Shown: in pieces, positions 1 through 22,680 of the stretch
Position numbering within the stretch: the stretch's first letter is position 1
Layout: the number at the start of each line of letters is the position of its first letter
Assembly: GCA_017404955.1 (NCBI GenBank)
Contig: JAFRBH010000011.1
Span: 45,453 to 109,452 of the forward strand
DNA length: 64,000 nt
Direction: 5' to 3'
From: Candidatus Saccharimonadota bacterium
Lineage (GTDB): Bacteria > Patescibacteriota > Saccharimonadia > Saccharimonadales > Saccharimonadaceae
Position numbers and translations under genes: made by a program
Notes under the pieces: generated by a model
What the model saw: the letters and a program-made list of their open reading frames with translations, nothing else
What the model was told of the DNA's origin: nothing
Database searches by the model: none

Positions 1-11
1 TTAGCCCTGCC

Positions 12-896
12 ATGAAATTGAAGGGCTATATGGTTGGTAAGTTTGAGGTCAAACATGTATCTCTAGATTACAATGCGTCAAATCTTAGCAAAATTATTGC
101 TGATGGTGACCTCGTCATTTCTGCTGGTGGCGATGGCACCAGTTCCGTTGCCCTAAATGGTATCTTATTATCAAAGAAGAGCGCTACTCTAGCCGTCCTT
201 GGCTATGGCAATTTTAATGACTTTGCTCACACTCTCGGCTATACCTCTTTTGCAGAAGTTATCTCTGATTTTGAGAATACTAACCCCACAATTCTTTACC
301 CACTTGAAGCATCTATTGATGATGCTCATTATCGTTATGCCGCCTGCTATTTTACTATTGGTATGTTTGCGGAAAGCACTGAACTCTTTGATACTAAGAA
401 AACTCGTGGCACTCTCAAATCTGGTAAAAAGGGAATTACCTACTCGCTAAAGGAACTCGCCAAGTGGTATTTTAAAAACAAAAAAAGGAGTTTCCTTCCA
501 GATAGTATTAGGTTGAATGATAAACCTCTAAATACTTTCGCAACTCTGAAATCGGGTAAAAAAGCGGCTCGTGCTAAAGGCGACAAAGTTTCTGATATTA
601 TCTTCGTTAATGGTGAGACCGTAGCTAAACTTATGAAAGGCGGAAATTTTTGGAAGCGAAAAAATGAGTTTTTGCTTAGTGTCTCAAAACTTTCCAGCTT
701 CCACCGTCTTACTAGATTCATGAGCCGCAGTCGTTTTAAGCGTATCCCCGGGAAGATCGTGAGTAATCCTCAGAGAATCACTTTTGATGATGTCTCTGAA
801 ATAGAAATTCAGGGCGAGGGTGAATATCAAAAACTGGTTATTAAAAACTTAACCGTCCAAAAATCTGATGTTGGCATAAAAGTTCTCGCAAAATAG
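12..896 (+). CDS. Diacylglycerol/lipid kinase family protein (YegS/BmrU-like), possibly 5'-truncated at the window edge
   Basis: 294-aa ORF with the DAGK catalytic-domain signature 'SAGGDGTSS' near the N-terminus. The frame stays open back to position 3, so the true start may lie upstream of the window. Confidence 0.65.
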   Translation: MKLKGYMVGKFEVKHVSLDYNASNLSKIIADGDLVISAGGDGTSSVALNGILLSKKSATLAVLGYGNFNDFAHTLGYTSFAEVISDFENTNPTILYPLEASIDDAHYRYAACYFTIGMFAESTELFDTKKTRGTLKSGKKGITYSLKELAKWYFKNKKRSFLPDSIRLNDKPLNTFATLKSGKKAARAKGDKVSDIIFVNGETVAKLMKGGNFWKRKNEFLLSVSKLSSFHRLTRFMSRSRFKRIPGKIVSNPQRITFDDVSEIEIQGEGEYQKLVIKNLTVQKSDVGIKVLAK

Positions 897-915
897 AGAC
901 ATTTTTCTCTATCTA

Positions 916-924
916 TGTTATAAT
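916..924 (+). promoter_or_regulatory. Extended -10 promoter box TGtTATAAT upstream of pilin paralog P1
   Basis: TGtTATAAT at 916-924, 26 nt before the ATG at 951. Unlike most first genes here, this one has a short leader. Confidence 0.45.
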
Positions 925-950
925 TATAGAAAATAAACTGCGAGAATTAA

Positions 951-1400
951 ATGAACAAAGCTCTTAAAACTTCAATTCAAATAATTACTGGCCTTGGTGC
1001 CACACTCGCCTTGAGTGCTGGTAAGGCCATGGCTCTCTCCGTCCAAGAAGGTGCGGAGGCTGCACGTGCTGAAGGTATGCCTACTATGCTCATTGGGCCA
1101 TCTGGTGTGTTCACCCAGATCACCAATACCGTGCTTTATATTGTTGGTATCATTTCTGTTATTATGTTAATTTACGGCGGCCTACGCTATGTCATTTCTG
1201 GTGGTGACAGCAAAAAAGTTACGGACGCCAAAAATACTATTCTTTATGCCATCATTGGTCTTATTGTTTCTATTCTCGCCTTCGCCATTGTTAACTTCGT
1301 CATCAATGCTATTACCGGCGATAACAACAGCGCTGCTCACGTGGAAGGCATCGTCGAACAGCATCAAGAGGAAAACGACGGTCAAAACCAAAACAGCTAA
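951..1400 (+). CDS. T4SS pilin-like small membrane protein, paralog P1 (TrbC/VirB2-type topology)
   Basis: 149 aa with a signal peptide (..AGKAMA), a variable region, then a conserved two-helix hairpin 'IYGGLRYVISGGDSKKVTDAKNTILYAIIGLIVSILAFAIVNFV' shared with the ORFs at 2718-4828. Acidic/Gln-rich C-terminal tail. Confidence 0.8.
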   Translation: MNKALKTSIQIITGLGATLALSAGKAMALSVQEGAEAARAEGMPTMLIGPSGVFTQITNTVLYIVGIISVIMLIYGGLRYVISGGDSKKVTDAKNTILYAIIGLIVSILAFAIVNFVINAITGDNNSAAHVEGIVEQHQEENDGQNQNS

Positions 1401-2072
1401 TTACTTCTTAGCAGTTAAAATCACAGCCGCGGCTAAATACTTAGCCCCGGCTTTTTTCATTAAATCAATAGCTGACTCCATTGAAGCACCAGTAGTCCAA
1501 ACGTCATCAATCAATAAATAGGTTCTATTAGCGTCAATTGCTCCAGATTTAACCAAATAGGCTTCTTTAGCTTGTTTTTTTCTAGTTTTTGCATTAGCTC
1601 CCACCTGTACGGTGTTTTTATTACGATAAAGAACCTGGCAAAAAGAAAACGCCTCTCTCCTCTTCGCCAACGCTTTAGCTAGTCTTAGAGTATGATCAAA
1701 CCCTCGCTCCCTAATATGTTTCGGTGCTGTCGGCAGGGGGACAATTACCGCTTCACCAAAATCTTTTGGCAAAGCTATATCCAACATTTCCGCTAAAATT
1801 TTATCAAGTCCTCTAATCGACTGATATTTGTAATCTTCCGTCAGCTCTTTCATTAACCCGTCCCTGTAAAAAGCTGTGTAGACCGGAACTTCACATTTGC
1901 ATTTTTCTATGTTTTGCTTACACCTAGAACATATTTTTACCATTCGTGATATGTTGTTTTTTTTACAACATTCACACAAAACTCTTCCCAAGTGCCCACA
2001 ACCCCTGCAAGAGTAAGGAGCAATTAGGTCTAAAATGTTAGAAAATGTTGTAATTTTTACATCAAAACCCAT
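1401..2072 (-). CDS. comFC: ComF family protein (ComFC-type phosphoribosyltransferase-fold competence protein)
   Basis: 223 aa with an N-terminal Cys-rich zinc-finger-like segment (CRGCG..CECC..CSRC) and the C-terminal PRTase motif 'LLIDDVWTTGASM'. Its stop codon directly abuts the stop of P1, with no intergenic space. Confidence 0.8.
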   Translation of the reverse strand: MGFDVKITTFSNILDLIAPYSCRGCGHLGRVLCECCKKNNISRMVKICSRCKQNIEKCKCEVPVYTAFYRDGLMKELTEDYKYQSIRGLDKILAEMLDIALPKDFGEAVIVPLPTAPKHIRERGFDHTLRLAKALAKRREAFSFCQVLYRNKNTVQVGANAKTRKKQAKEAYLVKSGAIDANRTYLLIDDVWTTGASMESAIDLMKKAGAKYLAAAVILTAKK

Positions 2073-2079
2073 ATTTTAC

Positions 2080-2108
2080 TTGATTTTAGCAAAAAAGTGC
2101 TTTATAAT
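2080..2108 (+). promoter_or_regulatory. Sigma70-type promoter of hsp20 (TTGATT-17-TATAAT)
   Basis: TTGATT at 2080-2085, a 17-nt spacer, TATAAT at 2103-2108, followed by a leader carrying GGAGG at 2131-2135. On the opposite strand TGcTAAAAT (2091-2083) lies 10 nt upstream of the comFC ATG, so the two promoters are overlapping and divergent. Confidence 0.55.
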
Positions 2109-2139
2109 AAAGCATAACAATAACAATTGTGGAGGTACA

Positions 2140-2622
2140 ATGGCCAAAAGTAATGATGACATGCTGATGGAAGACGAACTCGCTGCCGCTTTTTTGGATG
2201 ACAGCAACGCCGAAGCTCCTGTCGCAGAAGAACCTGTAGACGCAGAAGCAGCACCAGCAGACGACGACGGGTGGGATAACGCCGACGAATTTCCAGGACA
2301 GCTCGCTGTAGATGTCTACGAAACCGCCGACAAATTAGTAGTAAAAGCCCGCACTGCTGGCATTTCCAAGTCTGACTTGGACGTTAGCATTTCGGATAAC
2401 ATTCTAACCATCTCTGGTATCTTAAGCGGTGGTGAAGATGAGCACACTACTCGTTGGCACATTCAAGAGTGCTATTGGGGCGAATTCTCTCGTACCATCG
2501 CTCTTCCTGTTCAAGTTAAGGAAGACGAAAACAGTGTTAAAGCTGAACTAAAAGATGGTGTTCTTACTATTACCTTTGAGAAGGAAAAAGTAGAAGCTCC
2601 AAAGAAGATTCAGATTCAATAA
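2140..2622 (+). CDS. Hsp20/alpha-crystallin family small heat-shock protein
   Basis: Alpha-crystallin domain pattern ('PGQLAVDVYETADKLVVKARTAGISKSDLDVSISDNILTISG ... FSRTIALP..V....VKAELKDGVLTITFEK'). I chose the ATG at 2140, which is preceded by GGAGG, over the ORF-track start at 2035. Confidence 0.85.
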   Translation: MAKSNDDMLMEDELAAAFLDDSNAEAPVAEEPVDAEAAPADDDGWDNADEFPGQLAVDVYETADKLVVKARTAGISKSDLDVSISDNILTISGILSGGEDEHTTRWHIQECYWGEFSRTIALPVQVKEDENSVKAELKDGVLTITFEKEKVEAPKKIQIQ

Positions 2623-2642
2623 TCTGATTTCACCTAGAAATA

Positions 2643-2668
2643 AACCCCTAAGCGATTAGGGGTTTTCT
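2643..2668. terminator. Rho-independent terminator between convergent hsp20 and pilin P2
   Basis: Perfect 9-bp stem AACCCCTAA/TTAGGGGTT (2643-2651 and 2656-2664) with a 4-nt loop and a following T-run. Confidence 0.7.
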
Positions 2669-2717
2669 GATGCTATAATGTCACAATGAACTTCTTAGAG
2701 CAAAAGCTTATTATTTA

Positions 2718-3131
2718 TTACTCTCCGCCACCAAACACTTCAGTCAGCACAAAGTTGACAATTGCAAATGCAAGAAGTGCAATTACCAAGCCAATCACAC
2801 CATACAGTATAGTATTCTTTGCTTTAGCCGCTTTAGCAGGATCACCTTGAGAAGTAATATAGTTAACTCCACCAAGGATAATTACCAACACGGTTACAAT
2901 ACCAAGTACCGCCAAAATTACATTAATAATTACCTGAATAGTATCCATCAGGCCTTTGCCTTCTTCATCCGGCGCCACATTACATTCAGCCAAAGTATTA
3001 GCAGAAATACCTTTTTCAGCACGGATAGAGCCCGCAGGACAATCCACTGCCATTGCCGGCTGAGCTACAAAAAGGGAAAAGACGCCTGCCACTGCTACTG
3101 CCGCACTCGCTACCAAACTTTTTATTTTCAT
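2718..3131 (-). CDS. T4SS pilin-like small membrane protein, paralog P2
   Basis: 137 aa with signal peptide '..AQPAMA', a variable segment containing two Cys, and the conserved hairpin 'GGVNYITSQGDPAKAAKAKNTILYGVIGLVIALLAFAIVNFVL'. It has its own SD (AAGGAG) and a TGaTATAGT box upstream. Confidence 0.85.
   Translation of the reverse strand: MKIKSLVASAAVAVAGVFSLFVAQPAMAVDCPAGSIRAEKGISANTLAECNVAPDEEGKGLMDTIQVIINVILAVLGIVTVLVIILGGVNYITSQGDPAKAAKAKNTILYGVIGLVIALLAFAIVNFVLTEVFGGGE
2752..2786. repeat. 35-nt tract identical to 3251-3285 (pilin P2 and P3)
   Basis: aagttgacaattgcaaatgcaagaagtgcaattac occurs identically in both paralogs and encodes the 'ALLAFAIVNF' helix. The flanking bases differ. 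Confidence 0.9.
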
Positions 3132-3183
3132 TTATCATGCTCCTTAAAATTACTTACCTATACTATATCACATTTCTTATCAC

Positions 3184-3213
3184 AAAAAAAGCTCCCTAAG
3201 AAAGGGAGCTTTT
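3184..3213 (-). terminator. Rho-independent terminator downstream of pilin P3
   Basis: 10-bp stem AAAGCTCCCT/AGGGAGCTTT (3188-3197 and 3203-3212) with a 5-nt loop. The A7 run at 3184-3190 is a U-run on the minus strand. Confidence 0.75.
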
Positions 3214-3222
3214 GAAATTCTA

Positions 3223-3612
3223 TTAAGCATTGAATACGTTAGTAAGAATGAAGTTGACAATTGCAAATGCAAGAAGTGCAATTACAAGACCGACGACACC
3301 GTAGAGAATGGTATTCTTAGCCTTGGTAACCTTAGCGGCATCACCAGAAGAAGTAGTGTATTGAACACCACCCATGATAATCATGACAACAGCTACGAAG
3401 CCGATCACACCAAGAGCTACGTTAATGATAAGGTTGAGAATAGACATTAAATCGCGGCTATCACCAGTAGCTGCCTGTTGTGCGGCGGTACCAGTATATT
3501 TCTGTGCTGGGGTCTCTGCACTCACGGCAGGAGCAATCAAAGCAGAAGCAGTAAGAGTCGCTGTAGCTGCTAGACCCATTGTTACCATTTTGATTTTGTC
3601 TGTAATCTTCAT
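3223..3612 (-). CDS. T4SS pilin-like small membrane protein, paralog P3
   Basis: 129 aa with signal peptide '..APAVSA', a Cys-free variable segment and the hairpin 'GGVQYTTSSGDAAKVTKAKNTILYGVVGLVIALLAFAIVNFIL'. It has its own TGgTATAAT box (3652-3644, minus strand) and an SD. Confidence 0.85.
   Translation of the reverse strand: MKITDKIKMVTMGLAATATLTASALIAPAVSAETPAQKYTGTAAQQAATGDSRDLMSILNLIINVALGVIGFVAVVMIIMGGVQYTTSSGDAAKVTKAKNTILYGVVGLVIALLAFAIVNFILTNVFNA
3251..3285. repeat. 35-nt tract identical to 2752-2786
   Basis: See 2752-2786; the match was read directly from the sequence. Confidence 0.9.
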
Positions 3613-3685
3613 AGAATTTTTTCCTTTAGATTATTTTAATATAATTATACCACAAACTTATTTGTGAGCAAGATTTTTCTTTAAT

Positions 3686-4084
3686 TTACGTGGATGATCC
3701 AAAAATACCACCTAATACGAAGTTCACTATTGCAAATGCCAATATCGCTATAATTAAGCCCACCAGGGAATAAATCAACATATTTCGGGCTTGTTCTATC
3801 TGTCCAGGTTCCCCACTAGAGGTAGCGTATCTTTGGCCAGCTACGACAATCATAACTACTGCTACAATCCCTACTATCGTTATTGCACCATTTATTAACC
3901 CTTGAACTATATTCGGTGCCTGTCCGCTTTCACTACAACCAAGAGCCGCTTTTTGGGCTTCGTCCAAATCCGACGCACAAGCCTCTTTCGTGACCGCATT
4001 TTCTGCCATCACCGGTGTTATTGCCAAAAATCCTGCAAAAGCTGCTATTACTATTGCTAAAATTGCTACGCCTAATTTTCTCAT
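3686..4084 (-). CDS. T4SS pilin-like small membrane protein, paralog P4
   Basis: 132 aa with signal peptide '..TPVMA', a variable segment with two Cys, and the hairpin 'AGQRYATSSGEPGQIEQARNMLIYSLVGLIIAILAFAIVNFVL'. Its start overlaps the P5 stop (ATGA). Confidence 0.8.
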   Translation of the reverse strand: MRKLGVAILAIVIAAFAGFLAITPVMAENAVTKEACASDLDEAQKAALGCSESGQAPNIVQGLINGAITIVGIVAVVMIVVAGQRYATSSGEPGQIEQARNMLIYSLVGLIIAILAFAIVNFVLGGIFGSST

Positions 4085-4383
4085 TCTGCTCCTCCTGTCG
4101 TGGCCGCATCCCCAGCCAAATTAAATATGAAGTTCACAATCGCAAATGCTAATGCCACTATCACCAAACCAACAAGTGCATAAGCTACAATCTGTTTTGC
4201 TTGCTTAATCTTATCTGGTTGCCCTTGTGCAGCCAAAAACTTAATTGCGCCATAAATAATTACACCTACGGCAATCAATCCCGCCGCTGTTAATACCCAG
4301 TTCACAATATTACTAAGCCCTACTGCCGATGTGTCAGCCTTTGGCAAATTATCTAATGCTGTCAAATTACCGTCCATTTTCAT
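4081..4383 (-). CDS. T4SS pilin-like small membrane protein, paralog P5, with no recognisable signal peptide
   Basis: 100 aa with the hairpin 'YGAIKFLAAQGQPDKIKQAKQIVAYALVGLVIVALAFAIVNFIF'. The N-terminus 'MKMDGNLTALDNLPKADTS' is hydrophilic. The start lies 1 nt after the P6 stop. Confidence 0.75.
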   Translation of the reverse strand: MKMDGNLTALDNLPKADTSAVGLSNIVNWVLTAAGLIAVGVIIYGAIKFLAAQGQPDKIKQAKQIVAYALVGLVIVALAFAIVNFIFNLAGDAATTGGAE

Positions 4384-4384
4384 C

Positions 4385-4828
4385 CTAGCTTGCTCCCAAA
4401 ATTGTCATTATTGTATTCATAATTACGCTTGCGAATATCGAAATTAAAAGTCCAACTGTCGCAGCAATCAAAGTTTTCTTACCACGTTCAGCTCTATCTG
4501 GCAAACCTCTAGAAAACATATAAAGATAGCCGCCCCACGCCACCATTATGACTGCAATATAGCCGACCAAAACAGAGAGATCAATCAGAATATTGAGTAC
4601 AATTTTCCAAACGAAAGTCGGTAACTCATCTTGTGTTGGGGTTTTTATCTCACATTTACCATTAATATTGGTGGTTAAGCCCTCGTACCACGGCCTAAGC
4701 CCAAAAAATGCTGTCGAGCCACCACAACCACCACTGTCCCCATCATCGGCATAGACTGCGCCAGTTGTTGCCACCACCCCAGTTAGCATTGTCATTACCA
4801 ACATCAAACTTAAAATAATCTTTTTCAT
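4385..4828 (-). CDS. Divergent T4SS pilin-like membrane protein, paralog P6
   Basis: 147 aa with a signal peptide, a Gly/Cys-containing exposed segment (two Cys), and a two-helix hairpin 'WGGYLYMFSRGLPDRAERGKKTLIAATVGLLISIFASVIMN'. Topology matches the other paralogs but sequence is more distant. First gene of the P6-P5-P4 operon. Confidence 0.65.
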   Translation of the reverse strand: MKKIILSLMLVMTMLTGVVATTGAVYADDGDSGGCGGSTAFFGLRPWYEGLTTNINGKCEIKTPTQDELPTFVWKIVLNILIDLSVLVGYIAVIMVAWGGYLYMFSRGLPDRAERGKKTLIAATVGLLISIFASVIMNTIMTILGAS

Positions 4829-4834
4829 ACTTTT

Positions 4835-4843
4835 ATGATATCA
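4835..4843 (-). promoter_or_regulatory. Extended -10 box (TGaTATCAT) 6 nt upstream of the P6 ATG
   Basis: The minus strand reads TGTGATATCAT-AAAAGT-ATG. There is no SD, so the mRNA is predicted to be leaderless. Confidence 0.45.
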
Positions 4844-4931
4844 CACTTTTGGGGAAGACACTAGATTTTGCAGCCTAAAAACTAAACATAAACACAATCT
4901 AGACAAAAAAGCAAAAATATCTATTTTGCTC

Positions 4932-4960
4932 TTGACTATTTCGCTTATGTGTGCTATAAT
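4932..4960 (+). promoter_or_regulatory. Near-consensus sigma70 promoter of the T4SS structural operon
   Basis: TTGACT (4932-4937), a 17-nt spacer, and TGcTATAAT with the hexamer at 4955-4960. Confidence 0.7.
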
Positions 4961-4969
4961 TAACAGAGA

Positions 4970-4997
4970 TACCTGAAAAATCTCAGGTGTTTTAATT
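4970..4997 (+). promoter_or_regulatory. Small hairpin plus U-tract in the 5' leader of the VirB6-like gene
   Basis: Stem TACCTGA (4970-4976) pairs with TCAGGTG (4983-4989); that is 6 Watson-Crick pairs plus one G-U pair. The loop is 6 nt and is followed by TTTTAATT. Confidence 0.3.
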
Positions 4998-5008
4998 GGG
5001 CAAACAAA

Positions 5009-8000
5009 ATGAAATTATTCAAATCGCTTAAAGAACGTTTGAAGTTACCCCATTTTGATAGGGCAAAAATGCCATTTATTGGGGTAATTTTGGTCGCTTT
5101 CTTAGCGATTTTTGCTATTAACACTACCCCTGTTATGACCACCAACGTCTATGCTGAACCCGCTGAAGCCGTATCTGCAGCTGATGAAACTTGTTACACC
5201 CAAGTTGGTGCTCTTGGTTGGTTTATCTGTCCAGGGACCGGTGTTCTTGCTAAGGCTATTGATGCAGTTTATGGCATTATCAAAGAACTTCTTACTGTTC
5301 AACCTCTGTTTAATAACGATACTTCACCAATATTCCAAGTCTGGCAAATTATGCGGGATATTACGAATATTGTGTTTGTTATCATGTTGCTGATTATCAT
5401 TTATTCTCAGGTCACAGGGATAGGAATCGCCAACTACGGCATTAAAAAAGCCCTGCCAAAGTTGATTATTTCCGCCGTGTTAGTGAACTTATCTTTCTTA
5501 ATCTGTGCTCTGGCAGTCGATAGTAGCAACGTCATTGGTGCTAGCTTGCGTGAAGTTTTTGAAGGCATAGAAGTAAATGCTATCAACAGCGGTGGCCTTG
5601 GTACTGCCGCTCAAGTTACTTGGACCGATCTCGCTTCAGCACTTGTTAGTGGTGGTACCGTAGCCGGTGTTGCTATTGGGGTTGCCGGTGGTCTTGGCGC
5701 CTTCCTTTGGCCAGTACTTGCCGCTATGATTTGTGGCGTTCTTTCCGTGCTAGTTGGTCTTATTACTATTGGACTCCGTCAAGCACTCGTCGCTATGCTG
5801 GTGATGATTGCTCCACTAGCCTTCGTTGCCTATCTCTTGCCAAACACTGAGCAATACTTCAAAAAATGGAAAGATACCCTTATCGCTATGCTTATCTTTT
5901 ATCCAATGTTTAGTCTACTCTTTGGGGCATCACAACTCGCTGGCTGGGCAATCATTGCCTCTTCTGGAAACGCCGGTAATCTTGGCCCATTCTTCATTGT
6001 TCTCGGTATGGCAGTACAAGTATTTCCACTATTCTTGTCGGTTTCTCTTCTAAAGATGAGTAACACCATCCTTGGCACTGTCAGCAGCAAACTTGATAAT
6101 CTGTTCAACAAACCAAAAGAAGGAATTCGCGCTTTTGCCGATCAAAATCGTCAACTTGCTATGAATAGACACGTCAATAATTCCGCTCTCCCTAGTGCAC
6201 ATCTACGCAGATTTCTAGATGGTCAGAAACGCAAGCTAGACATTGGTGCCGAAAACGCTGAAAAAATCAGACGCGGTAACGCTGAAATCTGGGCTCAGAG
6301 AAGAATTGCTAATATGATGAAGTACGACCCGGCTGATTCCGAAAAATACACTAAGGGCGAAAAACAAGCAGACGGTAAGGTTAAGCAATACTACCTCAAA
6401 GCCGATGCTTTCACTAGAGATGCTAAAATGGCAGGGAACATCGAAATGGATGTCAAGACCGCTCAAGATGACGCAAAACATCTTATTGCTAATAGCTACG
6501 GCGAATATTATGGTAAAACCCATCAAGATAAAGCTCTCGCAGATCATGGCGCCAAGAGCTTCAAGGAAATGAACCGTGCCACCTTTACTACAGTCAATGA
6601 TGATGAAGCCGACTTTAACTATTTGACTAGTGAATATCTCAAAGCCGCCAATGCTGGCCACGACAGTTATCAATACAAGCACTTTGTTGAATCTGCTGGT
6701 GGTAGTCTTGGTGAGCTTGGTTCTACCAGTGTGCTTGGTCAGCTCATCGCTAAAGCCGCTGCTAATGAAGCTCGCCACCGTCACGACTTTGGCATTCTTG
6801 GTGCTAAATTCAATATTGATAAACGCGCTTTCCGCAATATGGTTACCGGTTACTATGTCAATGATGATGGTCTTGCTACTTATGCTCCAGATGCCGATGG
6901 TAATCAAAGTAAAGCCTACTATATCAACGATAAAAATGAGCGTGTCTATGAGCAATATCCAGGTGAATTCTTAAAATACCACCCAGAAGCTCTTCACCCA
7001 TACCAACTTCGCGATGAAAACGGTGCCTACTTTGTGATGAAAGATCTCAATGGCAACTTTGTCACTAGGATTTACAAACATAACACACCTGTTATGAAAG
7101 AAATTTTCCAAAACTTTGATACTGTTATTCAGGACCCAATCGATGGTCTTTACGGTATGTTGGCCGGTATCAAGGAAGGCACCTACACCGAAGTTAAAGA
7201 CGAAAATGGCAATGTTATTGCCCGCCTTCCAGACGTAGGCTTTAGTAATCTCCGCACCACAGTTGGTCGCTCTATTCAAGGCGCTAACTTCAAAGAGAAA
7301 GCTGCTTTTGCTGGACCAATGTATACCACCGCCGTTGCTCGTGGCTATATCAAAAACTTTACAGACAACAACATCCACCGCTTAGATGGCATTATCAAAG
7401 CCGTCAAAGCTGGTAACTTCAACATCCAGGATAAATTTGAGCTCGAACTTCTTGCCGACCTTATGAACCCAGAGAACTTCGTTAACGGGCGTCTTGAGTA
7501 TCTGTTCCCATATGAAGATCTAAAAACCGCCTTCGATGTTAATGGTAAACAGCTACGTGGTACTAAGATTAATGAAGATGGCAGCACTTCTGATGTCGAA
7601 CCAGAAAAAGCTACTTACGAACAATTGTTAAACACCGTCAAGAAGAAATATCTCTTCCCAGCCTCTCAGGCTATCGCCTATATGATGTCTCGCGCCACTA
7701 CGCCAAATGTCGCCGATGCTCAAAAATCTGGTTCTGCCGAAGCTTGGGGACTTCTTGCTAATTCCATCGATAAATGGACCGACCCTAAGCTTGCTAAAGA
7801 TGCCCATCTACCAAACCCATACAAGCGCAGCTCGAATACTGTTGACACAGCTTATGAAATGCAGAAAAAAATTCGTGAAAGTTCTACTCCAACAAAAGCT
7901 AAGAGTGCCTATAGTAATAACAATCCTGCCTCATCAGATGATATCATCAGAAACCACCAAAAAAATATTCCTGAACCAAATCCTATAGACCAATATAATC

Positions 8001-8233
8001 AAGCACTATCTGGAAAAGCTAACGCAATGCGCTCACAAATTGAGATGTTCAAGAGTGCTTATCTATATGATCCTGGAGCTTTCAGCCAAGCTGTTTTAAC
8101 ATTAATCGGTGAAGACCCAGAATTTGAAGATGTTTACTTCGAGTTCTCGAACTACGTAGACGACATCCCAACTGCTACAACTGAACAACTGTATCAGGCT
8201 ATCATCGAAAGCCTTTATCGCTTCGACATCTAA
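5009..8233 (+). CDS. VirB6/TrbL-like polytopic T4SS membrane protein with a large hydrophilic C-terminal domain
   Basis: 1074 aa. The first ~350 aa contain at least 6 hydrophobic helices (e.g. 'IVFVIMLLIIIYSQV', 'LIISAVLVNLSFLICALAV', 'LVAMLVMIAPLAFVAYLL'). The remaining ~700 aa are soluble and charged. It is the first gene downstream of the pilin block and precedes PrgI-like and VirB4. Confidence 0.6.
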   Translation: MKLFKSLKERLKLPHFDRAKMPFIGVILVAFLAIFAINTTPVMTTNVYAEPAEAVSAADETCYTQVGALGWFICPGTGVLAKAIDAVYGIIKELLTVQPLFNNDTSPIFQVWQIMRDITNIVFVIMLLIIIYSQVTGIGIANYGIKKALPKLIISAVLVNLSFLICALAVDSSNVIGASLREVFEGIEVNAINSGGLGTAAQVTWTDLASALVSGGTVAGVAIGVAGGLGAFLWPVLAAMICGVLSVLVGLITIGLRQALVAMLVMIAPLAFVAYLLPNTEQYFKKWKDTLIAMLIFYPMFSLLFGASQLAGWAIIASSGNAGNLGPFFIVLGMAVQVFPLFLSVSLLKMSNTILGTVSSKLDNLFNKPKEGIRAFADQNRQLAMNRHVNNSALPSAHLRRFLDGQKRKLDIGAENAEKIRRGNAEIWAQRRIANMMKYDPADSEKYTKGEKQADGKVKQYYLKADAFTRDAKMAGNIEMDVKTAQDDAKHLIANSYGEYYGKTHQDKALADHGAKSFKEMNRATFTTVNDDEADFNYLTSEYLKAANAGHDSYQYKHFVESAGGSLGELGSTSVLGQLIAKAAANEARHRHDFGILGAKFNIDKRAFRNMVTGYYVNDDGLATYAPDADGNQSKAYYINDKNERVYEQYPGEFLKYHPEALHPYQLRDENGAYFVMKDLNGNFVTRIYKHNTPVMKEIFQNFDTVIQDPIDGLYGMLAGIKEGTYTEVKDENGNVIARLPDVGFSNLRTTVGRSIQGANFKEKAAFAGPMYTTAVARGYIKNFTDNNIHRLDGIIKAVKAGNFNIQDKFELELLADLMNPENFVNGRLEYLFPYEDLKTAFDVNGKQLRGTKINEDGSTSDVEPEKATYEQLLNTVKKKYLFPASQAIAYMMSRATTPNVADAQKSGSAEAWGLLANSIDKWTDPKLAKDAHLPNPYKRSSNTVDTAYEMQKKIRESSTPTKAKSAYSNNNPASSDDIIRNHQKNIPEPNPIDQYNQALSGKANAMRSQIEMFKSAYLYDPGAFSQAVLTLIGEDPEFEDVYFEFSNYVDDIPTATTEQLYQAIIESLYRFDI

Positions 8234-8288
8234 CTTCTCTTTATTAACACTTCACACCATAAGCTTTTTGTGCTAATATATATTATAT

Positions 8289-9089
8289 ATGGCGCAGTAC
8301 AAGGTCCCACAAGACGTTGAGGCCGATGATAAGCTCCTCGGCCCATTCACTTTCCGCCAATTTGTCTATCTGATGATTATGGGTGGCTTTGTTGGTGTTG
8401 GTTTTGCACTCTTTCAAATTTTTCCACTCTTAGCTCTGCTCGCCGTACCCTTTGTAATTTTCTTCGCTGTCTTGGCTCTTCCGCTGAGAAAAGACCAACC
8501 AATGGAAACTTATCTTGCCGCAGTAGTCTCTTATCATCTAAAACCAAACAAGCGCTTCTGGAACCCCGGTCAGCGTGAATCTACTGTTGAGATTATCGCT
8601 CCGAAAAAAGTTGAGGCTCCACGTGCCCGCGACATCTCCGAAGAAGAAGCAGGGAACCGTCTTTCTTTTCTTGCTAATGTTATCGACACTGAAGGCTACG
8701 CTGTTCGTGGTGATCTAAACAACGCTCCGTTAAAATCACAATTTATCGAAGAGGCTAACGCTACACCAGACGTTCTAGACGCTAACGCCTCTCCAGTTAT
8801 TAATCAAATGCTTGCCAAACAGCAAAACAATCGTCACGAAGAACTTCTTAACGAGATGCGAAATGCTATCAATAAATCCGAAAGTACAGCTGCTCCAAGT
8901 ACTGCTTACTACAACCCAAATGGCCATGTTATCAACCCTATTTCCACAACGCAACCGGTTGACCCAGCTACTATGGCCAAGTTGCGGAATCTAGCCAACA
9001 ACACTGATTACTCTGTTGAAACCATCTCTAAAGAAGCTGCTAGGATGGAGAAGCAAGGAAATAATGAAGTTGTCGTGCCATTGCACTAA
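8289..9089 (+). CDS. PrgI-family (VirB3-like) T4SS membrane protein
   Basis: 266 aa. The N-terminus 'YKVPQDVEADDKLLGPFTFRQFVYLMIMGGFVGVGFALF..' followed by a second TM helix is the PrgI-family pattern. It sits directly upstream of VirB4-type genes. Confidence 0.7.
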   Translation: MAQYKVPQDVEADDKLLGPFTFRQFVYLMIMGGFVGVGFALFQIFPLLALLAVPFVIFFAVLALPLRKDQPMETYLAAVVSYHLKPNKRFWNPGQRESTVEIIAPKKVEAPRARDISEEEAGNRLSFLANVIDTEGYAVRGDLNNAPLKSQFIEEANATPDVLDANASPVINQMLAKQQNNRHEELLNEMRNAINKSESTAAPSTAYYNPNGHVINPISTTQPVDPATMAKLRNLANNTDYSVETISKEAARMEKQGNNEVVVPLH

Positions 9090-9104
9090 AGAGACTAAGG
9101 AGAA

Positions 9105-10145
9105 ATGATGAACCCACAAGCACAACCAAATCAACAAGCCTACAACCCATATAGTGGTGTCGGTATGCCAGTACAAAGCATGTCAGCTCAGCCAGCTCCA
9201 GCTCCTGCACAACCAATTGCACAACCAGCTCCTACTCCAGTCCAGCCGGCCCCTGCAGCGCAATCACTTTCTGCAGCCGTTGAAACCATGCCAGTACAGC
9301 CACAACCAGCGGCCACTCCAACACAACCTACAACGGTCGTCCAGCCAGCTCCAGCTCCTGCACAACCAACTCCTACTCCAGTCCAACAACCAAACCCTGC
9401 TATTGGTTCTGCCCAACAACCTGTCGGAAAAGCCAACCAAAATGTCACTCCTGACAATCCACTTTCCACCCAATCCACACTACTTATCTCTGAACTTCGC
9501 GATGGTCTCGTCATCATGAAAGACGGCTCCTTCCGTGCAGTTATTGCTTGCCAATCCATCAACTTTGATCTGATGTCAGAAACTGAACGCGAAGCTGTGG
9601 AGTACTCCTTCCAAAACTTCTTGAACTCCTTAAACTTCACCACTCAAATTCTCATCCGTTCTCAGCGTGTTGATATTGGACCATATCTAGAACGGCTCAC
9701 CGAAATTAGGAAAAATAATGACAACATGCTCCTCGGTGTCTTAATGGACGATTATATCAACTTTATTGACATCCTCTCTCAAGAGGCCAACATTATGGAT
9801 AAATCATTCTTTATCGTTATCCCATATTACGTATCTGCCGAAGCAGAAAAGGTTATGACTCAAACTCGCAATTTCTTCTCCAGCTTCTCGAAATCTAAAC
9901 AAGTAGAAGTTACTAAAATTGACCGTCCAACTTACGATAAAGCTATCACCGAAATTAACAACCGTGTAGAGTCTGTTATATCTGGTCTTTTCCAAATTGG
10001 TATCCATTCTGTTCGTCTTAACACTCGTGAGCTTGGCGCATTATACTACAACTTCAATAACCCTGATACTGCCGTAAGGGAGCCCCTAGTAGACTTTACT
10101 AAACTTGCCACCACCTATGTCAAGAAAGGAGATAAAAATGAGTAG
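9105..10145 (+). CDS. Pro/Gln/Ala-rich protein whose C-terminal ~200 aa resemble the extreme N-terminal domain of Gram-positive VirB4-family ATPases
   Basis: 346 aa with an AAGGAG SD. Residues ~20-110 are low-complexity (QPAPAPAQP.. repeats). The rest, 'LRDGLVIMKDGSFRAVIACQSINFDLMSETEREAVEYSFQNFLNSLNFTTQILIRSQRVD', matches the first conserved block of TrsE/PrgJ/Orf16-type ATPases as I remember it. The stop overlaps the next start by 8 nt (ATGAGTAG). Confidence 0.6.
   Translation: MMNPQAQPNQQAYNPYSGVGMPVQSMSAQPAPAPAQPIAQPAPTPVQPAPAAQSLSAAVETMPVQPQPAATPTQPTTVVQPAPAPAQPTPTPVQQPNPAIGSAQQPVGKANQNVTPDNPLSTQSTLLISELRDGLVIMKDGSFRAVIACQSINFDLMSETEREAVEYSFQNFLNSLNFTTQILIRSQRVDIGPYLERLTEIRKNNDNMLLGVLMDDYINFIDILSQEANIMDKSFFIVIPYYVSAEAEKVMTQTRNFFSSFSKSKQVEVTKIDRPTYDKAITEINNRVESVISGLFQIGIHSVRLNTRELGALYYNFNNPDTAVREPLVDFTKLATTYVKKGDKNE
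9189..9385 (+). repeat. Direct repeats inside the Pro-rich coding segment
   Basis: The 28-mer cagccagctccagctcctgcacaaccaa occurs at 9189-9216 and 9342-9369. The 16-mer ctcctactccagtcca occurs at 9229-9244 and 9370-9385. Copy 1 carries an extra 12 nt (ttgcacaaccag) that near-duplicates the preceding ctgcacaaccaa. Confidence 0.9.
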
Positions 10146-12009
10146 AAAAGATCGTAAGAATAAGAATCAACAGCTTTCTGCTGCTCAAATCGCCGCCCAA
10201 GCTGAAGCAATGGAAGAAGCTGAAATCCAAAAAGCGTTTGAACAGGGCATTACTACTCTTCGTGACCTCATCTCTCCATCTAGCATTGAAATCCATGCTG
10301 ATTATTTCCGTCTCGGTACCAAATATGGTCGTACTCTTTACGTCTATGGCTACCCACGTTCATTGTATACTGGCTGGCTCTCTCCGCTTATCAACATCGA
10401 CGAGGTGCTAGATATTTCCATGTTTATCTACCCAGTAGATACTACTATCGTCATGAAAAATCTTCAAAAGAAAGTAACTCAGCTTGAAGCATCTATCTCT
10501 GTAAACTCTGAAAAAGGCAAGATTCGCGACCCAGAACTTGAGGCTGCTATCGGTGATGCCGAGGAGCTCCGCGATCAACTCCAAGTCGGTGCCGAAAAAT
10601 TCTTCCGCTTTGGCCTTTACGTTACTCTTTGGGCCGACTCTCTTGATGAACTTGGATTCGTCCAGAGAAAAATTGAAACTCTCTTTGGCCAGCAGATGGT
10701 GTTCTCTAAAGTTGCATCAAGTCAACAAGAGCAGGGGATGAACAGCTGTATGCCACAATGTACCGATCAGCTCCTTATCCGCCGCAATATGAATACTGGT
10801 GCCATTTCTACTTCTTTCCCATTCACCTCCGCTGACCTTACCCAAGAAAAAGGTATTCTCTACGGTATCAATATGCACAATAATGGCTTAGTCATATTTG
10901 ATCGCTTCTCTCTAGAAAACGCCAACATGGTAGTCTTCGCTAAGTCTGGTTCTGGCAAATCATTTACTGTTAAACTTGAAGCTTTGCGTTCTATGATGGT
11001 TGGGACCGAAGTTCTTATCATCGACCCAGAAAATGAATACCAACGACTTTGTGATGCGGTAGGCGGTTCTTATATTAGACTCTCTCTCAATTCCGACGTG
11101 CGCATTAACCCATTTGATCTGCCAAAAGTAGTTGATGCTGAAGATGCCAACGATGCACTTCGCGCAAACCTTGTTACTCTACATGGTCTCTTCCGCTTAA
11201 TGTTAAGCTCTGGCACTTCCAATAAAACTTCCTCTGCCAATACTGTTATTGCGCCAGCTCTCACACCAAATGAGGAAGCCGATCTTGATCAAGCCTTAAT
11301 TGATACCTATGCTCGTGCTGGCATTACGTCCGATCCACTCACTCATCAATCAACCCCACCAACTATTGCTAACCTTTATGATACCTTGCTTCACATGGGT
11401 GGTACCGGTCCGAATTTGGCTCAACGTCTCCGCAAGTACACTACTGGTACCTTTGCCGGTATTTTCTCTCAACAATCTAATATTGACATCAACAACCAGA
11501 TGGTTGTGTTTAATATTCGCGATCTTGAGGACGAACTTCGCCCAGTTGCTATGTATATCGTCCTCTCTCACATCTGGAATATTGTTCGTGCTCAACAAAA
11601 ACGTCGCTTGCTCATCGTTGATGAGGCCTGGCAATTAATGGAGTACGAAGATTCTGCAAACTTCTTATTCTCACTTGCTAAACGTGCCCGTAAATATTAC
11701 CTTGGTCTTACGACTATTACCCAGGACGTTGAAGACTTCATGTCCTCCAAGATGGGCCGTGCTATTGTGGCAAACTCTTCCATGCAAATTCTCCTAAAAC
11801 AGTCTAGTTCCGCTGTTGACGTCCTTTCTGATGTCTTTAAACTCACCGAGGAAGAGAAAAAACGTCTTTCCAATTTCCCAGTCGGTCAAGGTCTCTTCTT
11901 TGCTGGTCAAAATCACGTTCATATTCAGGTTATCGCCTCAGAAACCGAGGAAGGACTCATCACTACTAATCCAGTTCAGCAACAAACTCAACAACAGAAC
12001 CAACAATAG
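10138..12009 (+). CDS. virB4: VirB4-family T4SS ATPase
   Basis: 623 aa from the ATG at 10138, with AAGGAG 7 nt upstream. Walker A 'FAKSGSGKSF' and Walker B 'RLLIVDEAWQLM' are present. The N-terminal block 'ISPSSIEIHADYFRLGTKYGRTLYVYGYPRSLYTGWLSPL' is typical of Gram-positive VirB4/TrsE proteins. Confidence 0.85.
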   Translation: MSRKDRKNKNQQLSAAQIAAQAEAMEEAEIQKAFEQGITTLRDLISPSSIEIHADYFRLGTKYGRTLYVYGYPRSLYTGWLSPLINIDEVLDISMFIYPVDTTIVMKNLQKKVTQLEASISVNSEKGKIRDPELEAAIGDAEELRDQLQVGAEKFFRFGLYVTLWADSLDELGFVQRKIETLFGQQMVFSKVASSQQEQGMNSCMPQCTDQLLIRRNMNTGAISTSFPFTSADLTQEKGILYGINMHNNGLVIFDRFSLENANMVVFAKSGSGKSFTVKLEALRSMMVGTEVLIIDPENEYQRLCDAVGGSYIRLSLNSDVRINPFDLPKVVDAEDANDALRANLVTLHGLFRLMLSSGTSNKTSSANTVIAPALTPNEEADLDQALIDTYARAGITSDPLTHQSTPPTIANLYDTLLHMGGTGPNLAQRLRKYTTGTFAGIFSQQSNIDINNQMVVFNIRDLEDELRPVAMYIVLSHIWNIVRAQQKRRLLIVDEAWQLMEYEDSANFLFSLAKRARKYYLGLTTITQDVEDFMSSKMGRAIVANSSMQILLKQSSSAVDVLSDVFKLTEEEKKRLSNFPVGQGLFFAGQNHVHIQVIASETEEGLITTNPVQQQTQQQNQQ

Positions 12010-12065
12010 CCTATCTCCATTCTAGCGCTAGTTTTTTTCACCATAATATGTTATAATTACAGAGT

Positions 12066-15829: not shown

Positions 15830-15831
15830 CT

Positions 15832-16479: not shown

Positions 16480-16509
16480 ACACAAGTTTTTTGCTATAAT
16501 ATACACTAT

Positions 16510-22500: not shown

Positions 22501-22546
22501 AATGAGATTGCCTCCTTCTTCTTTACCTAAATAACTAATTAAATTT

Positions 22547-22555
22547 ATTATAGCA
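22547..22555 (-). promoter_or_regulatory. dnaA promoter extended -10 (TGcTATAAT)
   Basis: The minus strand reads TGTGGAAAA-GTCTAAGAATTT-TGCTATAAT. The perfect DnaA box at 22568-22576 occupies the -35 position. Confidence 0.5.
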
Positions 22556-22680
22556 AAATTCTTAGACTTTTCCACAACTTTTAACAAGATTTTTGAATAT
22601 TTCATAATAATAAAACGGAATTATAGAGGTGCACTTTTCCACAGGATATGGCGTTAACCTTGGAAAATGTGGAAAACTTA

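Follow-up and report, generated by a model that had tools for sequence, protein, structure and literature searches.

A total of 441 VirB2-like gene arrays have been published for Patescibacteria, and such genes are found near virB4 in 1,135 Patescibacteria assemblies (PMC12102498). In Southlakia epibionticum, which belongs to a different family of Saccharibacteria from the host studied here, SEML1_0014-0019 are six pilin genes, each essential by Tn-seq, and a further 'pilin', SEML1_0024, is non-essential (PMC10633639 Table S1); SEML1_0013 is annotated as TrbL/VirB6-like by structure (PMC10633639 Table S2). VirB2-like proteins without a signal peptide are normal in Gram-positive T4SSs, an example being the essential PrgF of pCF10, for which a labelling-supported model places a pilus on a VirB6-like pentamer (bioRxiv 10.64898/2025.12.18.695078). 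A T4SS pilus has never been seen on any Saccharibacterium, although reviews continue to treat one as possible (PMC12857230).

Here, we analysed a 64-kb stretch of DNA (the window) from a Nanosyncoccaceae Saccharibacterium of the ruminant gut. Its pilin array is a further example of the gene array already published, the syntenic form of which is essential in a cultured relative. Beyond the published array accounts, the locus reveals a split double pilin, concerted evolution of two paralogs, a candidate leaderless-type promoter and distinctive codon usage in two genes. With a probability of roughly 0.6, we consider the six genes to encode a VirB2/PrgF-like pilin set whose members are non-redundant parts of one heteromeric, chromosomal T4SS assembly of the Gram-positive type (MPF-FATA-related).

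A pilin array adjoining an origin-proximal T4SS locus

The initial annotation had assigned six ORFs with a shared C-terminal two-helix hairpin to a T4SS pilin family near VirB4, and inspection of the window recovered all six at the same coordinates and on the same strands, with the hairpin and its core motif common to every paralog. A profile built from the six matched only those ORFs within the 64-kb window. All six exceeded the PF18895 (T4SS_pilin) gathering score of 26.6 bits (30.5-45.9 bits, E 4e-7 to 6e-12), a similarity far beyond chance, while P2, P3 and P4 also passed the cutoff of NCBIfam NF045849 ('pilin-like conjugal transfer protein') and PF04956 (TrbC/VirB2) matched all six below threshold. 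Together with their physical linkage to the VirB4 locus, these matches identify the six small genes as paralogous VirB2-like T4SS pilin genes adjoining an origin-proximal T4SS locus, with dnaA at 21136-22605, ~16 kb from the array.

Divergent from the array and preceded by a promoter-like site (4932-4960) lies a gene for a polytopic membrane protein of 1074 aa (5009-8233, plus strand), which had no Pfam or NCBIfam match and is VirB6-like by synteny, its position and size matching SEML1_0013. It is followed on the same strand by a PrgI-family (VirB3-like) protein (8289-9089; PF12666, 47.2 bits) and by VirB4, present as two overlapping ORFs (9105-12009) that comprise a TraC/TrsD-like N-terminal part (9105-10145) and an ATPase (10105-12009). 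VirB4 was assigned from Pfam P-loop_TraG/AAA_10 matches and the NCBIfam CD1110-family VirB4 model (376.9 bits, cutoff 325); the first of the two ORFs corresponds to the N-terminal region of VirB4, and its ortholog in the related locus L081 matches TraC-like PF26593. Two glucosaminidase-domain proteins (PF01832), VirB1-like cell-wall hydrolases, flank a 215-aa ORF further along the plus strand (14699-17829).

The array adjoins the VirB6-like gene in essentially all of ~65 related loci and also in Southlakia, where SEML1_0013-0024 follow the same order as here (VirB6-like gene, pilin array, Hsp20, ComF-like gene and outlying pilin). This arrangement bears on the proposal that the six are generic small membrane proteins, functionally unrelated to the adjoining T4SS, as might be read from the weak and promiscuous matches of their hairpins to Yip1, DUF202 and DUF350 profiles and from the want of a significant structural match (see below). 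Since the linkage to the T4SS is conserved, however, that proposal is largely refuted, and it becomes very improbable when the curated family threshold passed by all six ORFs, the many assemblies with such genes near virB4 and the essential phenotype shared by Southlakia array genes and T4SS genes are also considered.

Exposed segments of the six paralogs

The outlying paralog, P1 (149 aa; 951-1400, plus strand; PF18895, 45.9 bits), comprises a signal peptide, a short conserved ecto segment, the two-helix hairpin and a variable C-terminal tail, which is rich in acidic, Gln and Ser residues, in line with its earlier description as acidic and Gln-rich. Among 12 orthologs its ecto segment is 62% identical and its hairpin 82%, and the segment 'SVQEGAEAARAEGMP' is kept across ~12 species. 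By synteny, P1 may be the equivalent of the non-essential SEML1_0024. The remaining five genes lie on the minus strand. P2 (137 aa; 2718-3131; PF18895, 43.7 bits; NF045849, 51.2 bits, cutoff 40) has an ecto loop with a conserved Cys pair (C-P-x-G-S ... L-A-E-C-N), which is retained in all 12 orthologs compared, the pair in L010 differing in position and surrounding motif. In P3 (129 aa; 3223-3612; PF18895, 44.7 bits) the ecto segment varies more than in any other paralog, with 22% identity among orthologs against 76% in the hairpin, and P4 (132 aa; 3686-4084; PF18895, 42.4 bits) carries the conserved Cys-pair motif AC...QKAALGC. P5 (100 aa; 4081-4383; PF18895, 45.7 bits) is a hairpin without a signal peptide, whilst P6 (147 aa; 4385-4828; PF18895, 30.5 bits; PF04956, 21.3 bits, sub-threshold), the first gene of its operon, has a signal peptide, the conserved ecto motif C..FFGLRPWY.GL...G.C and a divergent hairpin. 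P6 had been singled out as much more divergent, and its 27% identity to P1 and lowest Pfam score of the six agree; many of its 100 orthologs have precomputed PF04956 matches. P2, P4 and P6 each contain two Cys residues, whereas P1 and P3 contain none, as previously described; P5 likewise lacks Cys. The segments between signal peptide and helix 1 are indeed unalignable between copies.

These differences had been read as a possible repertoire of alternative pilins whose hypervariable tips would allow antigenic variation or a switchable specificity for host surfaces. Proposals of this kind exist for the Bartonella TrwL and Anaplasma VirB2 paralog arrays, and arrays like the present one have prompted the same speculation (PMC12102498). 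Several features accord with such a repertoire: the ecto segments evolve faster than the hairpins, as segment identities among orthologs show, above all in P3; array size ranges from 3 to 7 among species; and in L010 three copies combine one and the same 68-aa hairpin with heads unrelated to each other, in a cassette-like manner. Yet the ecto segments, divergent as they are between paralogs, are conserved inside each orthologous group across ~12 species, including the motifs of P1, P2, P4 and P6 and the Cys pairs of the latter three. Moreover, the pilin coding sequence (~2.4 kb) of a 99.63%-identical strain differs by 10 SNPs and by no indel, a rate matching that of the flanks, so that the supposedly variable regions are near-identical across strains; five other metagenome contigs have identities of 99.3-100%. 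The promoters are separate and constitutive-looking, and the sequence showed no features of silent cassettes or invertible elements. Finally, as each of the six Southlakia array genes is essential, they do not behave as redundant alternatives, which is incompatible with interchangeable copies. We therefore regard switchable or antigenically variable pilins as decidedly unlikely, and non-redundant subunits of one assembly as the better fit.

A double pilin split into P6 and P5

Most relatives encode a fused double pilin, in which P6 corresponds to the first hairpin and P5 to the second. Of 67 loci that could be classified, the window and 66 related ones, 50 have one two-hairpin ORF at the P6+P5 position and 16 have it split, the split state occurring in at least three clades of the VirB4 tree and the fused forms reaching distant relatives. 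The absence of a signal peptide from P5, reported in the initial annotation, holds in 12/12 orthologs; upstream of the ATG its frame stays open for just 7 codons, so no start codon has been missed. Rather than marking a special assembly or base component, as had been suggested, this absence is explained by P6 and P5 being the split form of a tandem two-hairpin pilin. Concatenation extends further among relatives, where polypeptides of 2, 3, 6 and 7 hairpins were found.

Concerted evolution of P2 and P3

The perfectly identical 35-nt tract noted earlier in P2 (2752-2786, minus strand) and P3 (3251-3285, minus strand) was verified, and encodes VIALLAFAIVN(F) of helix 2. It contains 11 identical codons in a row, compared with about half of same-amino-acid codons being identical elsewhere (permutation p=0.008). 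Concerted evolution of the two genes is confined to the tract coding for helix 2 (0.523 vs 0.410±0.037, p=0.001), and these results lend statistical support to the gene conversion previously proposed.

Expression signals and codon usage

P1 is preceded by a promoter-like site (896-924, plus strand) of the form GAGACA-17-TATAAT with an upstream TG. P2 and P3 had each been credited with a TGnTATAAT box, an SD sequence and a terminator. For P3 all three are present, namely TGgTATAAT (3652-3644) and SD AAAGGA (3627-3622) within 3622-3652 on the minus strand, and downstream a strong intrinsic terminator (3187-3213, minus strand; 11-bp stem, then a T-run). For P2, the sequence (3140-3170, minus strand) reads as SD AAGGAG (3145-3140) with an extended -10 box that departs from the described form (TGaTATAGT, 3170-3162), and its terminator is shared: a hairpin at 2642-2666, between the convergent Hsp20 (plus strand) and P2 (minus strand) genes, is probably a bidirectional terminator for both. 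The terminator scan did not report this hairpin, which failed the T-tail rule because its T-run pairs into the stem.

The proposed tight coupling of P6-P5-P4 is evident in the sequence, with 1 nt between P6 and P5, an ATGA overlap of the P5 stop and P4 start, and SD sequences located within upstream ORFs (that of P4, AGGAGG, inside P5). No terminator was found in the P4-P3 interval, making read-through from the P6-P5-P4 transcript into P3 possible. Upstream of P6, an extended -10 box (TGaTATCAT, 4835-4843, minus strand) ends 6 nt before the ATG, with no SD. In most of 19 other species inspected by eye, a TGnTAnnAT box precedes the first pilin ATG by 6-8 nt; this conserved box is a candidate start site for a leaderless mRNA.

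Preference for C-ending codons reaches 0.65 in P1 and 0.59 in P3, whereas the genes of the window average 0.34±0.09. Promoters and codon usage, from which any division into major and minor pilins is drawn here, suggest that P1 and P3 are probably the abundant subunits, and P3, with its consensus promoter, own terminator and biased codons, is a candidate major subunit.

Structure and proposed assembly

An AF2 model of P6 shows a signal-peptide helix, a small beta-hairpin and a long helical hairpin (69-107, 110-146). AF2 confidence is moderate (pLDDT 69 and 61). A PDB sequence search gave no match, Foldseek gave no significant match, and hhalign to PrgF reached only E=0.006 and 6% probability; sequence and fold ties of the six paralogs to solved VirB2 pilins are thus weak.

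In the heteromeric assembly that we favour, each protein would insert into the membrane so that its helical hairpin leaves a basic loop in the cytoplasm and exposes both termini outside; five pilins would do so with a Sec signal peptide cut at an AxA-type site, and P5 via a short acidic N-tail. A VirB4-powered machine would then extract the hairpins and stack them on the VirB6-like platform into a wall-spanning tube or pilus, the loop lining the lumen and the N-terminal ecto segments and C-tails occupying the outer surface. P3, and perhaps P1, could be the abundant building blocks, since each has a consensus promoter of its own and codon usage typical of high expression, with P2, P4 and the P6-P5 pair as low-abundance specialised subunits bearing conserved disulfide-looped heads. 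P6 and P5 would work as one two-hairpin unit, kept stoichiometric by translational coupling on a leaderless operon transcript, and short-tract gene conversion would keep the helix-2 packing surfaces of P2 and P3 matched.

Alternatively, the hairpins might form no extended pilus at all, but a membrane- or wall-spanning T4SS ring or channel of fixed stoichiometry. Rotary-ATPase c-rings offer an analogue, their hairpin subunits being likewise duplicated and fused, and the weak, non-significant Foldseek matches include ATP-synthase subunit c. The recurrent fusions into multi-hairpin polypeptides, the repeated fission or fusion of P6/P5, the several distinct subunits that are each essential, the lack of a VirB5-like tip protein among the neighbouring genes scanned and the so far unobserved pilus (PMC12857230) all accord with a ring. 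Proteins with up to 6-7 covalently joined hairpins might be easier to reconcile with a closed ring than with an open-ended filament. However, C-out to N-out linkage also fits neighbouring subunits of a helical filament, the family-level relatives of the six are pilin-like conjugation proteins (PF18895, NF045849), and P6 orthologs carry sub-threshold or precomputed TrbC/VirB2 matches. In labelling experiments, moreover, PrgF of the related class of Gram-positive T4SSs behaves like a pilus with a lined lumen (bioRxiv 10.64898/2025.12.18.695078). A ring or channel is therefore unlikely, though a stronger contender than interchangeable pilins.

Six pilin paralogs at an origin-proximal T4SS locus

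All six pilin genes proposed in the initial annotation were recovered by ORF listing, with P1 (951-1400) on the plus strand and P2 (2718-3131), P3 (3223-3612), P4 (3686-4084), P5 (4081-4383) and P6 (4385-4828) on the minus strand, and a search with a profile built from these six paralogs detected no further copy in the 64-kb window. Rfam models returned nothing in the pilin array and one tRNA in the whole window. The assignment as T4SS pilins was borne out, with every paralog exceeding the curated gathering threshold (26.6 bits) of PF18895 (T4SS_pilin; P1 45.9, P2 43.7, P3 44.7, P4 42.4, P5 45.7 and P6 30.5 bits). Multiple alignment agreed with the annotation in showing a common C-terminal two-helix hairpin and core motif, upstream segments that could not be aligned between paralogs, and P6 as the outlier; the cysteine pair confined to P2, P4 and P6, the acidic/Gln tail of P1, the 1-nt gap between P6 and P5 and the ATGA overlap of P5 with P4 were likewise as described. 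P5 indeed has no signal peptide, and none can have been missed since the frame upstream of its ATG is open for just seven codons.

Both the alignment and an AF2 model of P6 conform to the layout of a small protein whose two transmembrane helices are linked through a short, charged loop. This loop is Lys-rich (SxGDxxKxxxAKNT), and under the positive-inside rule the N and C termini of the hairpins would lie outside. In the P6 model (33-sequence alignment, pLDDT 69), the signal-peptide helix is followed by a small β-hairpin, which lies in the exposed segment between signal peptide and helix 1 (the ecto segment, or head), and then by a long helical hairpin (helices 69-107 and 110-146). An hmmsearch of PDB sequences with the 33-sequence P6 profile gave no match even at E≤10, and Foldseek of the model against the PDB returned unrelated helical hairpins at best (E=3.4), simple hairpins being poorly discriminated by this comparison.

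P2 (51.2 bits), P3 (46.5 bits) and P4 (40.5 bits) also passed the curated 40-bit cutoff of NCBIfam NF045849, the Mbov_0395 family that, with MMCAP2_0565, represents the Mycoplasma ICE pilin-like proteins, whereas P1 (31.3 bits), P5 (33.9 bits) and P6 (19.5 bits) fell under it. The window VirB4 similarly resembles the Mycoplasma ICE VirB4 model (270 bits). In Mycoplasma, a host that has no cell wall, the pilin-like protein comes from an ICE gene present in one copy. Because three paralogs pass this Mycoplasma-ICE model, their sequences suggest that the pilin is an original component of monoderm (MPF-FATA) T4SSs rather than one borrowed from diderm systems, a question (native to monoderms or co-opted from Gram-negative systems) left open by PMC12102498 (Quiñonero-Coronel et al. 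2025). The paralogs share with TrbC/VirB2 pilins (F TraA, Ti VirB2, R388 TrwL) a signal peptide and a two-helix hairpin with termini out and loop in, but differ in belonging to a monoderm host, in lacking a sequence or fold match in the PDB and in scoring below the PF04956 gathering threshold of 27.9 bits (P6 21.3 bits, E 3e-4; P2 17.1 bits; no match for P1, P3, P4 or P5). Many P6 orthologs carry precomputed PF04956 matches, and remote homology to TrbC/VirB2 is plausible at scores short of family membership.

Transcribed divergently from the pilin operon is a gene for a 1074-aa membrane protein (5009-8233), beyond which lie a PrgI/VirB3-like gene and VirB4 as two overlapping ORFs, encoding a TraC/TrsD-like N-terminal domain protein (9105-10145) and the ATPase (10105-12009), the latter passing the NCBIfam CD1110-family cutoff. 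The locus also encodes an 878-aa protein without a family assignment and two glucosaminidase-domain proteins; VirB5, VirB7, VirB9 and VirB10 were not identified among the neighbouring genes scanned. With five tandem pilin genes plus P1 at 5-9 kb from VirB4, the window falls within the array definition of PMC12102498 (at least two pilin genes, tandem or interrupted, near virB4 in Patescibacteria). Since dnaA (21136-22605, minus strand) is ~16 kb from the pilin array, the T4SS locus is origin-proximal, matching the Patescibacteria pattern in the same study. With no relaxase and no obvious coupling protein, the system probably has a substrate other than conjugative DNA. Of the 80 closest VirB4 loci, from species-representative genomes, nearly all were labelled Candidatus Saccharibacteria, Nanosyncoccus or Nanosyncoccaceae, with a few other or generic labels, and titles naming a source mostly indicated ruminant gut. 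Across these species the VirB4 ATPase part is exceptionally conserved (84-96% identity, vs 30-80% for neighbouring genes).

Correspondence to the essential Southlakia array

Pilin arrays are a documented feature of Saccharibacteria, and there is nothing new in the mere existence of this one. VirB2-like pilins (PF18895/PF04956) have been reported near virB4 in 1,135 Patescibacteria assemblies, including 441 arrays of 2-11 genes with a mean identity of about 25%, and a role in antigenic variation or host range has already been speculated upon (PMC12102498). We compared the window with these arrays, with that of Southlakia epibionticum (PMC10633639; Wang et al. 2023) and with the TM7x 'Sec-secreted array', all of which share with it the Pfam family and low identity between paralogs. 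According to PMC10633639, the pilin series of the S. epibionticum T4SS cluster is essential: its Tn-seq table runs from SEML1_0013 (VirB6-like) through pilins SEML1_0014-0019, of which all six are essential and 0015/0016 overlap by 4 nt, to Hsp20 and ComF-like genes and, further on, SEML1_0024, a non-essential 'pilin' on the other strand.

By the ML1 coordinates and annotations, the window order is identical (VirB6-like, P6-P5-P4-P3-P2, Hsp20, ComF-like, P1). The two loci thus share the position beside a VirB6-like gene of an origin-proximal T4SS without relaxase, the flanking Hsp20 and ComF-like genes, the outlying pilin on the opposite strand and an overlapped pair in which a longer pilin is accompanied by one of roughly 100 aa (SEML1_0015/0016 vs P6/P5). 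They differ in that the window derives from another family (Nanosyncoccaceae, ruminant gut) and that ML1 has six in-array pilins plus one, compared with five plus P1 in the window and a seventh gene just outside. By homology and synteny, the pilin array of the window would be essential for epibiotic growth, a property known solely from the S. epibionticum Tn-seq. Orthology of P1 and SEML1_0024 was not confirmed by sequence: a P1 homologue search gave 3,948 matches, and the best 120 of these 3,948 were all close Nanosyncoccaceae orthologs.

The seventh PF18895 gene was seen in L081, a metagenome contig from a 99.6%-identical strain, where it occupies 14909-15637, just past the left end of the window and beyond a DAGK-like gene (window 12-896), and encodes 242 aa with a long Cys-/Ser-rich ecto domain and one hairpin. 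The P1 stop codon (1398-1400) directly abuts, with zero spacing, the stop of the convergent ComF-like gene (1401-2072, minus strand), within the 3' end of which lies a terminator-like hairpin for P1 (1431-1446).

Pilin heads are conserved within ortholog groups

The initial annotation had suggested that the array could be a repertoire of alternative or minor pilins with variable tips. In the Bartonella Trw and Anaplasma phagocytophilum systems, too, the T4SS locus contains several divergent virB2-like genes arranged in tandem; these arrays differ between strains and have been connected with antigenic variation or host range. Pilin ORFs were located in all 80 loci with the six-paralog profile, and positional orthologs were aligned from 12 genomes of the six-gene layout. 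The ecto segments differed between paralogs and were recognisably conserved inside each ortholog group, with the motifs 'SVQEGAEAARAEGMP..LIG..GVF' in P1, 'CP.GS...LAECN' in P2, 'AC....QKAALGC' in P4 and 'C..FFGLRPWY.GL...G.C' in P6. Mean pairwise ortholog identities for ecto segment and hairpin, respectively, were 62% and 82% for P1, 36% and 63% for P2, 22% and 76% for P3, 32% and 51% for P4, and 31% and 53% for P6, with P5, to which an ecto value does not apply, at 50% in the hairpin. Amino-acid identity of the pilins to their counterparts in the nearest species (L001) was 56-87%, inside the range of neighbouring genes (59-91%); VirB4 was the exception, at 96%. Synonymous sites of the pilins are saturated at this between-species divergence.

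Between closely related strains, excess variation of the ecto segments, as in Bartonella and Anaplasma, was not found in L081 or in five further contigs. L081 (223 kb) covers window positions 1-14828 at 99.63% identity and has 55 SNPs in these 14.8 kb; the ~2.4 kb of pilin coding sequence contain 10 of the SNPs and no indels, and P1 and P5 are identical. The five others were 99.3-100% identical, and the only notable differences were a gap in a scaffold and the deletion of 15 nt from the signal peptide of P3; it is this gap (a run of Ns) and this deletion that account for the P2/P3 length differences of one contig, L083, which we rejected as head variation. The 98-aa P5 of L081, compared with 100 aa in the window, merely reflects another choice of start codon in the same sequence, judging by its coordinates.

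The copies are thus stable between strains and conserved as orthologs, unlike those of Bartonella and Anaplasma. Because the heads are conserved, strain variation is at background and the Southlakia genes are individually essential (PMC10633639), the repertoire reading is not upheld, and these features point to non-redundant, specialised subunits rather than alternatives. Our best reading, to which we assign a probability of roughly 60%, is a heteromeric set of specialised subunits. Its main rival is a ring or channel of fixed stoichiometry; an extracellular T4SS pilus of Saccharibacteria is itself stated as hypothetical in the literature (PMC12857230).

P6 and P5 correspond to a split double pilin

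At the position held in the window by P6 and P5, 50 of 67 classifiable loci (66 related loci and the window) encode a double pilin, a single ORF of about 220-280 aa with two hairpin domains, and one of the classifiable loci has three. The missing signal peptide of P5 is explained by its being the second half of such a protein. Domain 1 was P6-like in nearly all fused loci and domain 2 most often P5-like, the best match among the window paralogs being weakly discriminated for the latter. Distant P6 homologs are likewise fused (217-255 aa). For a fused double pilin, AF2 predicted four helices with low confidence (pLDDT 61). On a VirB4 neighbour-joining tree, genomes with the split fall into at least three distinct clades, and Southlakia has it as well. 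These genomes differ at the P6/P5 junction, where the two genes lie 1, 7 or 9 nt apart or overlap by 8 nt; the split is therefore real and neither a sequencing error nor a frameshift device. Programmed frameshifting or read-through joining P6 to P5 was rejected, given that spacing and frame vary among split-clade species and that P5 has its own SD and ATG. From this gene fusion and fission, as 'Rosetta stone' evidence, P6 and P5 almost certainly touch physically.

When searched against 1.84 billion representative proteins, the fused-form profile matched 68,356 clusters at E≤1e-3, 11,554 at E≤1e-10 and 336 at E≤1e-30, among them proteins in which one signal peptide is followed by 3, 6 or 7 hairpins in tandem. 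The two-hairpin double pilin is the majority state in Nanosyncoccaceae, with 3, 6 or 7 hairpins per chain elsewhere. Concatenated hairpins can be seen at L008 3352-4137, L013 3503-4192, L063 2903-3907 and about 47 other loci, and in proteins P0090-P0100, P0101, P0131 and P0232. Hairpins with both ends outside could be chained in this manner, and the short acidic N-tail of P5 would cross the membrane without a signal peptide; PrgF, a Gram-positive VirB2-like protein, likewise has none (bioRxiv 10.64898/2025.12.18.695078).

Concerted evolution of P2 and P3

The perfectly identical 35-nt tract of P2 and P3 was present as described. It represents 11 identical codons running, against 33 of 64 same-amino-acid codons identical overall (p=0.008), and synonymous choices agree inside a genome and differ across genomes (GCA TTT GCA ATT in the window vs GCT TTC GCT ATC in L001). 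Nucleotide identity in the helix-2 tract was 0.771 for within-genome P2-P3 pairs, 0.748 for orthologs and 0.716 for cross-genome paralogs. Label permutation gave 0.523 vs 0.410±0.037 (p=0.001) in helix 2. Helix 1 and the loop, used as internal controls for genome-wide codon usage, showed no effect. The gene conversion put forward in the initial annotation is supported by this permutation result and is confined to helix 2, sharpening the hypothesis to one in which the packing helix of P2 and P3 may be homogenised by conversion. In L010 (2667-4005), three adjacent paralogs combine unrelated heads with a 68-aa hairpin whose protein sequence is the same in all three (100% identity) despite 12-28 nucleotide differences, all of them necessarily synonymous, a constant module held identical by either selection or repeated conversion.

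Expression signals and subunit abundance

P3 has the full set of signals ascribed to it (TGgTATAAT, SD and a strong terminator). Of those ascribed to P2, an extended box (TGaTATAGT) and an SD (AAGGAG) are present, but the box is not TATAAT and the terminator is a hairpin that P2 shares with Hsp20, the gene converging on it. The promoter of P1 is a TG-extended TATAAT, the P4-P3 interval is without a terminator, and the SD sequences of P5 and P4 lie within the preceding ORFs. P6 has no SD, and a TG-extended -10 box, TGaTATCAT (4843-4835, minus strand), ends 6 nt upstream of its ATG. By eye, a TGnTAnnAT box precedes the first pilin ATG by 6-8 nt in most of 19 other species, whether the first operon gene is split or fused (loci L001, L008, L013, L017, L020, L024, L040, L044, L052, L072 and others). 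A -10 box at 6-8 nt from the ATG, together with the missing SD, suggests that the first gene of the pilin operon is read from a conserved leaderless mRNA.

Preference for C-ending two-fold codons was 0.65 in P1, 0.59 in P3 and 0.62 in Hsp20, compared with 0.34±0.09 in the other 49 genes and 0.12-0.29 in P2, P4, P5 and P6. Codon usage of P1 and P3 is therefore typical of highly expressed genes and that of the other four is at or below average. Codon usage, together with the consensus promoter that each of them has to itself, makes P1 and P3 candidates for the abundant subunits, and P2, P4 and P6-P5 are probably specialised ones.

Implications for T4SS assembly

A further parallel is pCF10 PrgF(B2), an essential protein of Enterococcus faecalis (ter Beek et al. 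2025; bioRxiv 10.64898/2025.12.18.695078). It, too, is a small hairpin of two helices whose charged loop faces the cytoplasm, and its gene directly precedes those for a VirB6-like protein (PrgH), PrgI and a CD1110-family VirB4. By hhalign, the similarity of the six-paralog profile to PrgF was weak and not significant (E=0.0058, probability 6%), with register kept in helix 1 and the loop. PrgF differs in being a single 75-aa gene of a conjugative T4SS, whereas the window has six paralogs, all but P5 carrying a signal peptide and an added ecto segment, at a locus without a relaxase or obvious coupling protein.

A joint reading, which we regard as tentative and rather doubtful, is that Saccharibacteria T4SS hairpins act as coupled multi-hairpin units building a heteromeric assembly of defined order, instead of the classical homopolymeric VirB2 pilus. 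Coupling would be covalent or translational, with P6-P5 as an obligate two-hairpin module, repeatedly split and re-fused, and relatives bearing 3-7 hairpins per chain. The assembly might be an initiator or adaptor seated on the VirB6-like platform, or it might close into a ring, and the packing helices of its abundant subunits would be kept alike through gene conversion.

Few machines are known to be indispensable to Saccharibacteria as epibionts, the T4SS being one of them, and the comparative details (abundant vs specialised subunits, P6-P5 contact, heads conserved per ortholog and the homogenised P2/P3 helix) sharpen hypotheses on how a Gram-positive-type T4SS builds its conduit. In the available parts of PMC12102498 and PMC10633639 we found no mention of covalently concatenated hairpins, split or fused double pilins, concerted evolution, a leaderless promoter or ortholog-level conservation. 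The split double pilin, helix-2 concerted evolution, conserved leaderless promoter and codon-usage hierarchy are new details of moderate specialist interest. Elsewhere in the window, beside glycosyltransferase genes, a 706-aa protein (35230-37350, plus strand) consists of ~7 ricin-type β-trefoil lectin repeats and may serve the epibiont as a surface adhesin or in binding glycans.
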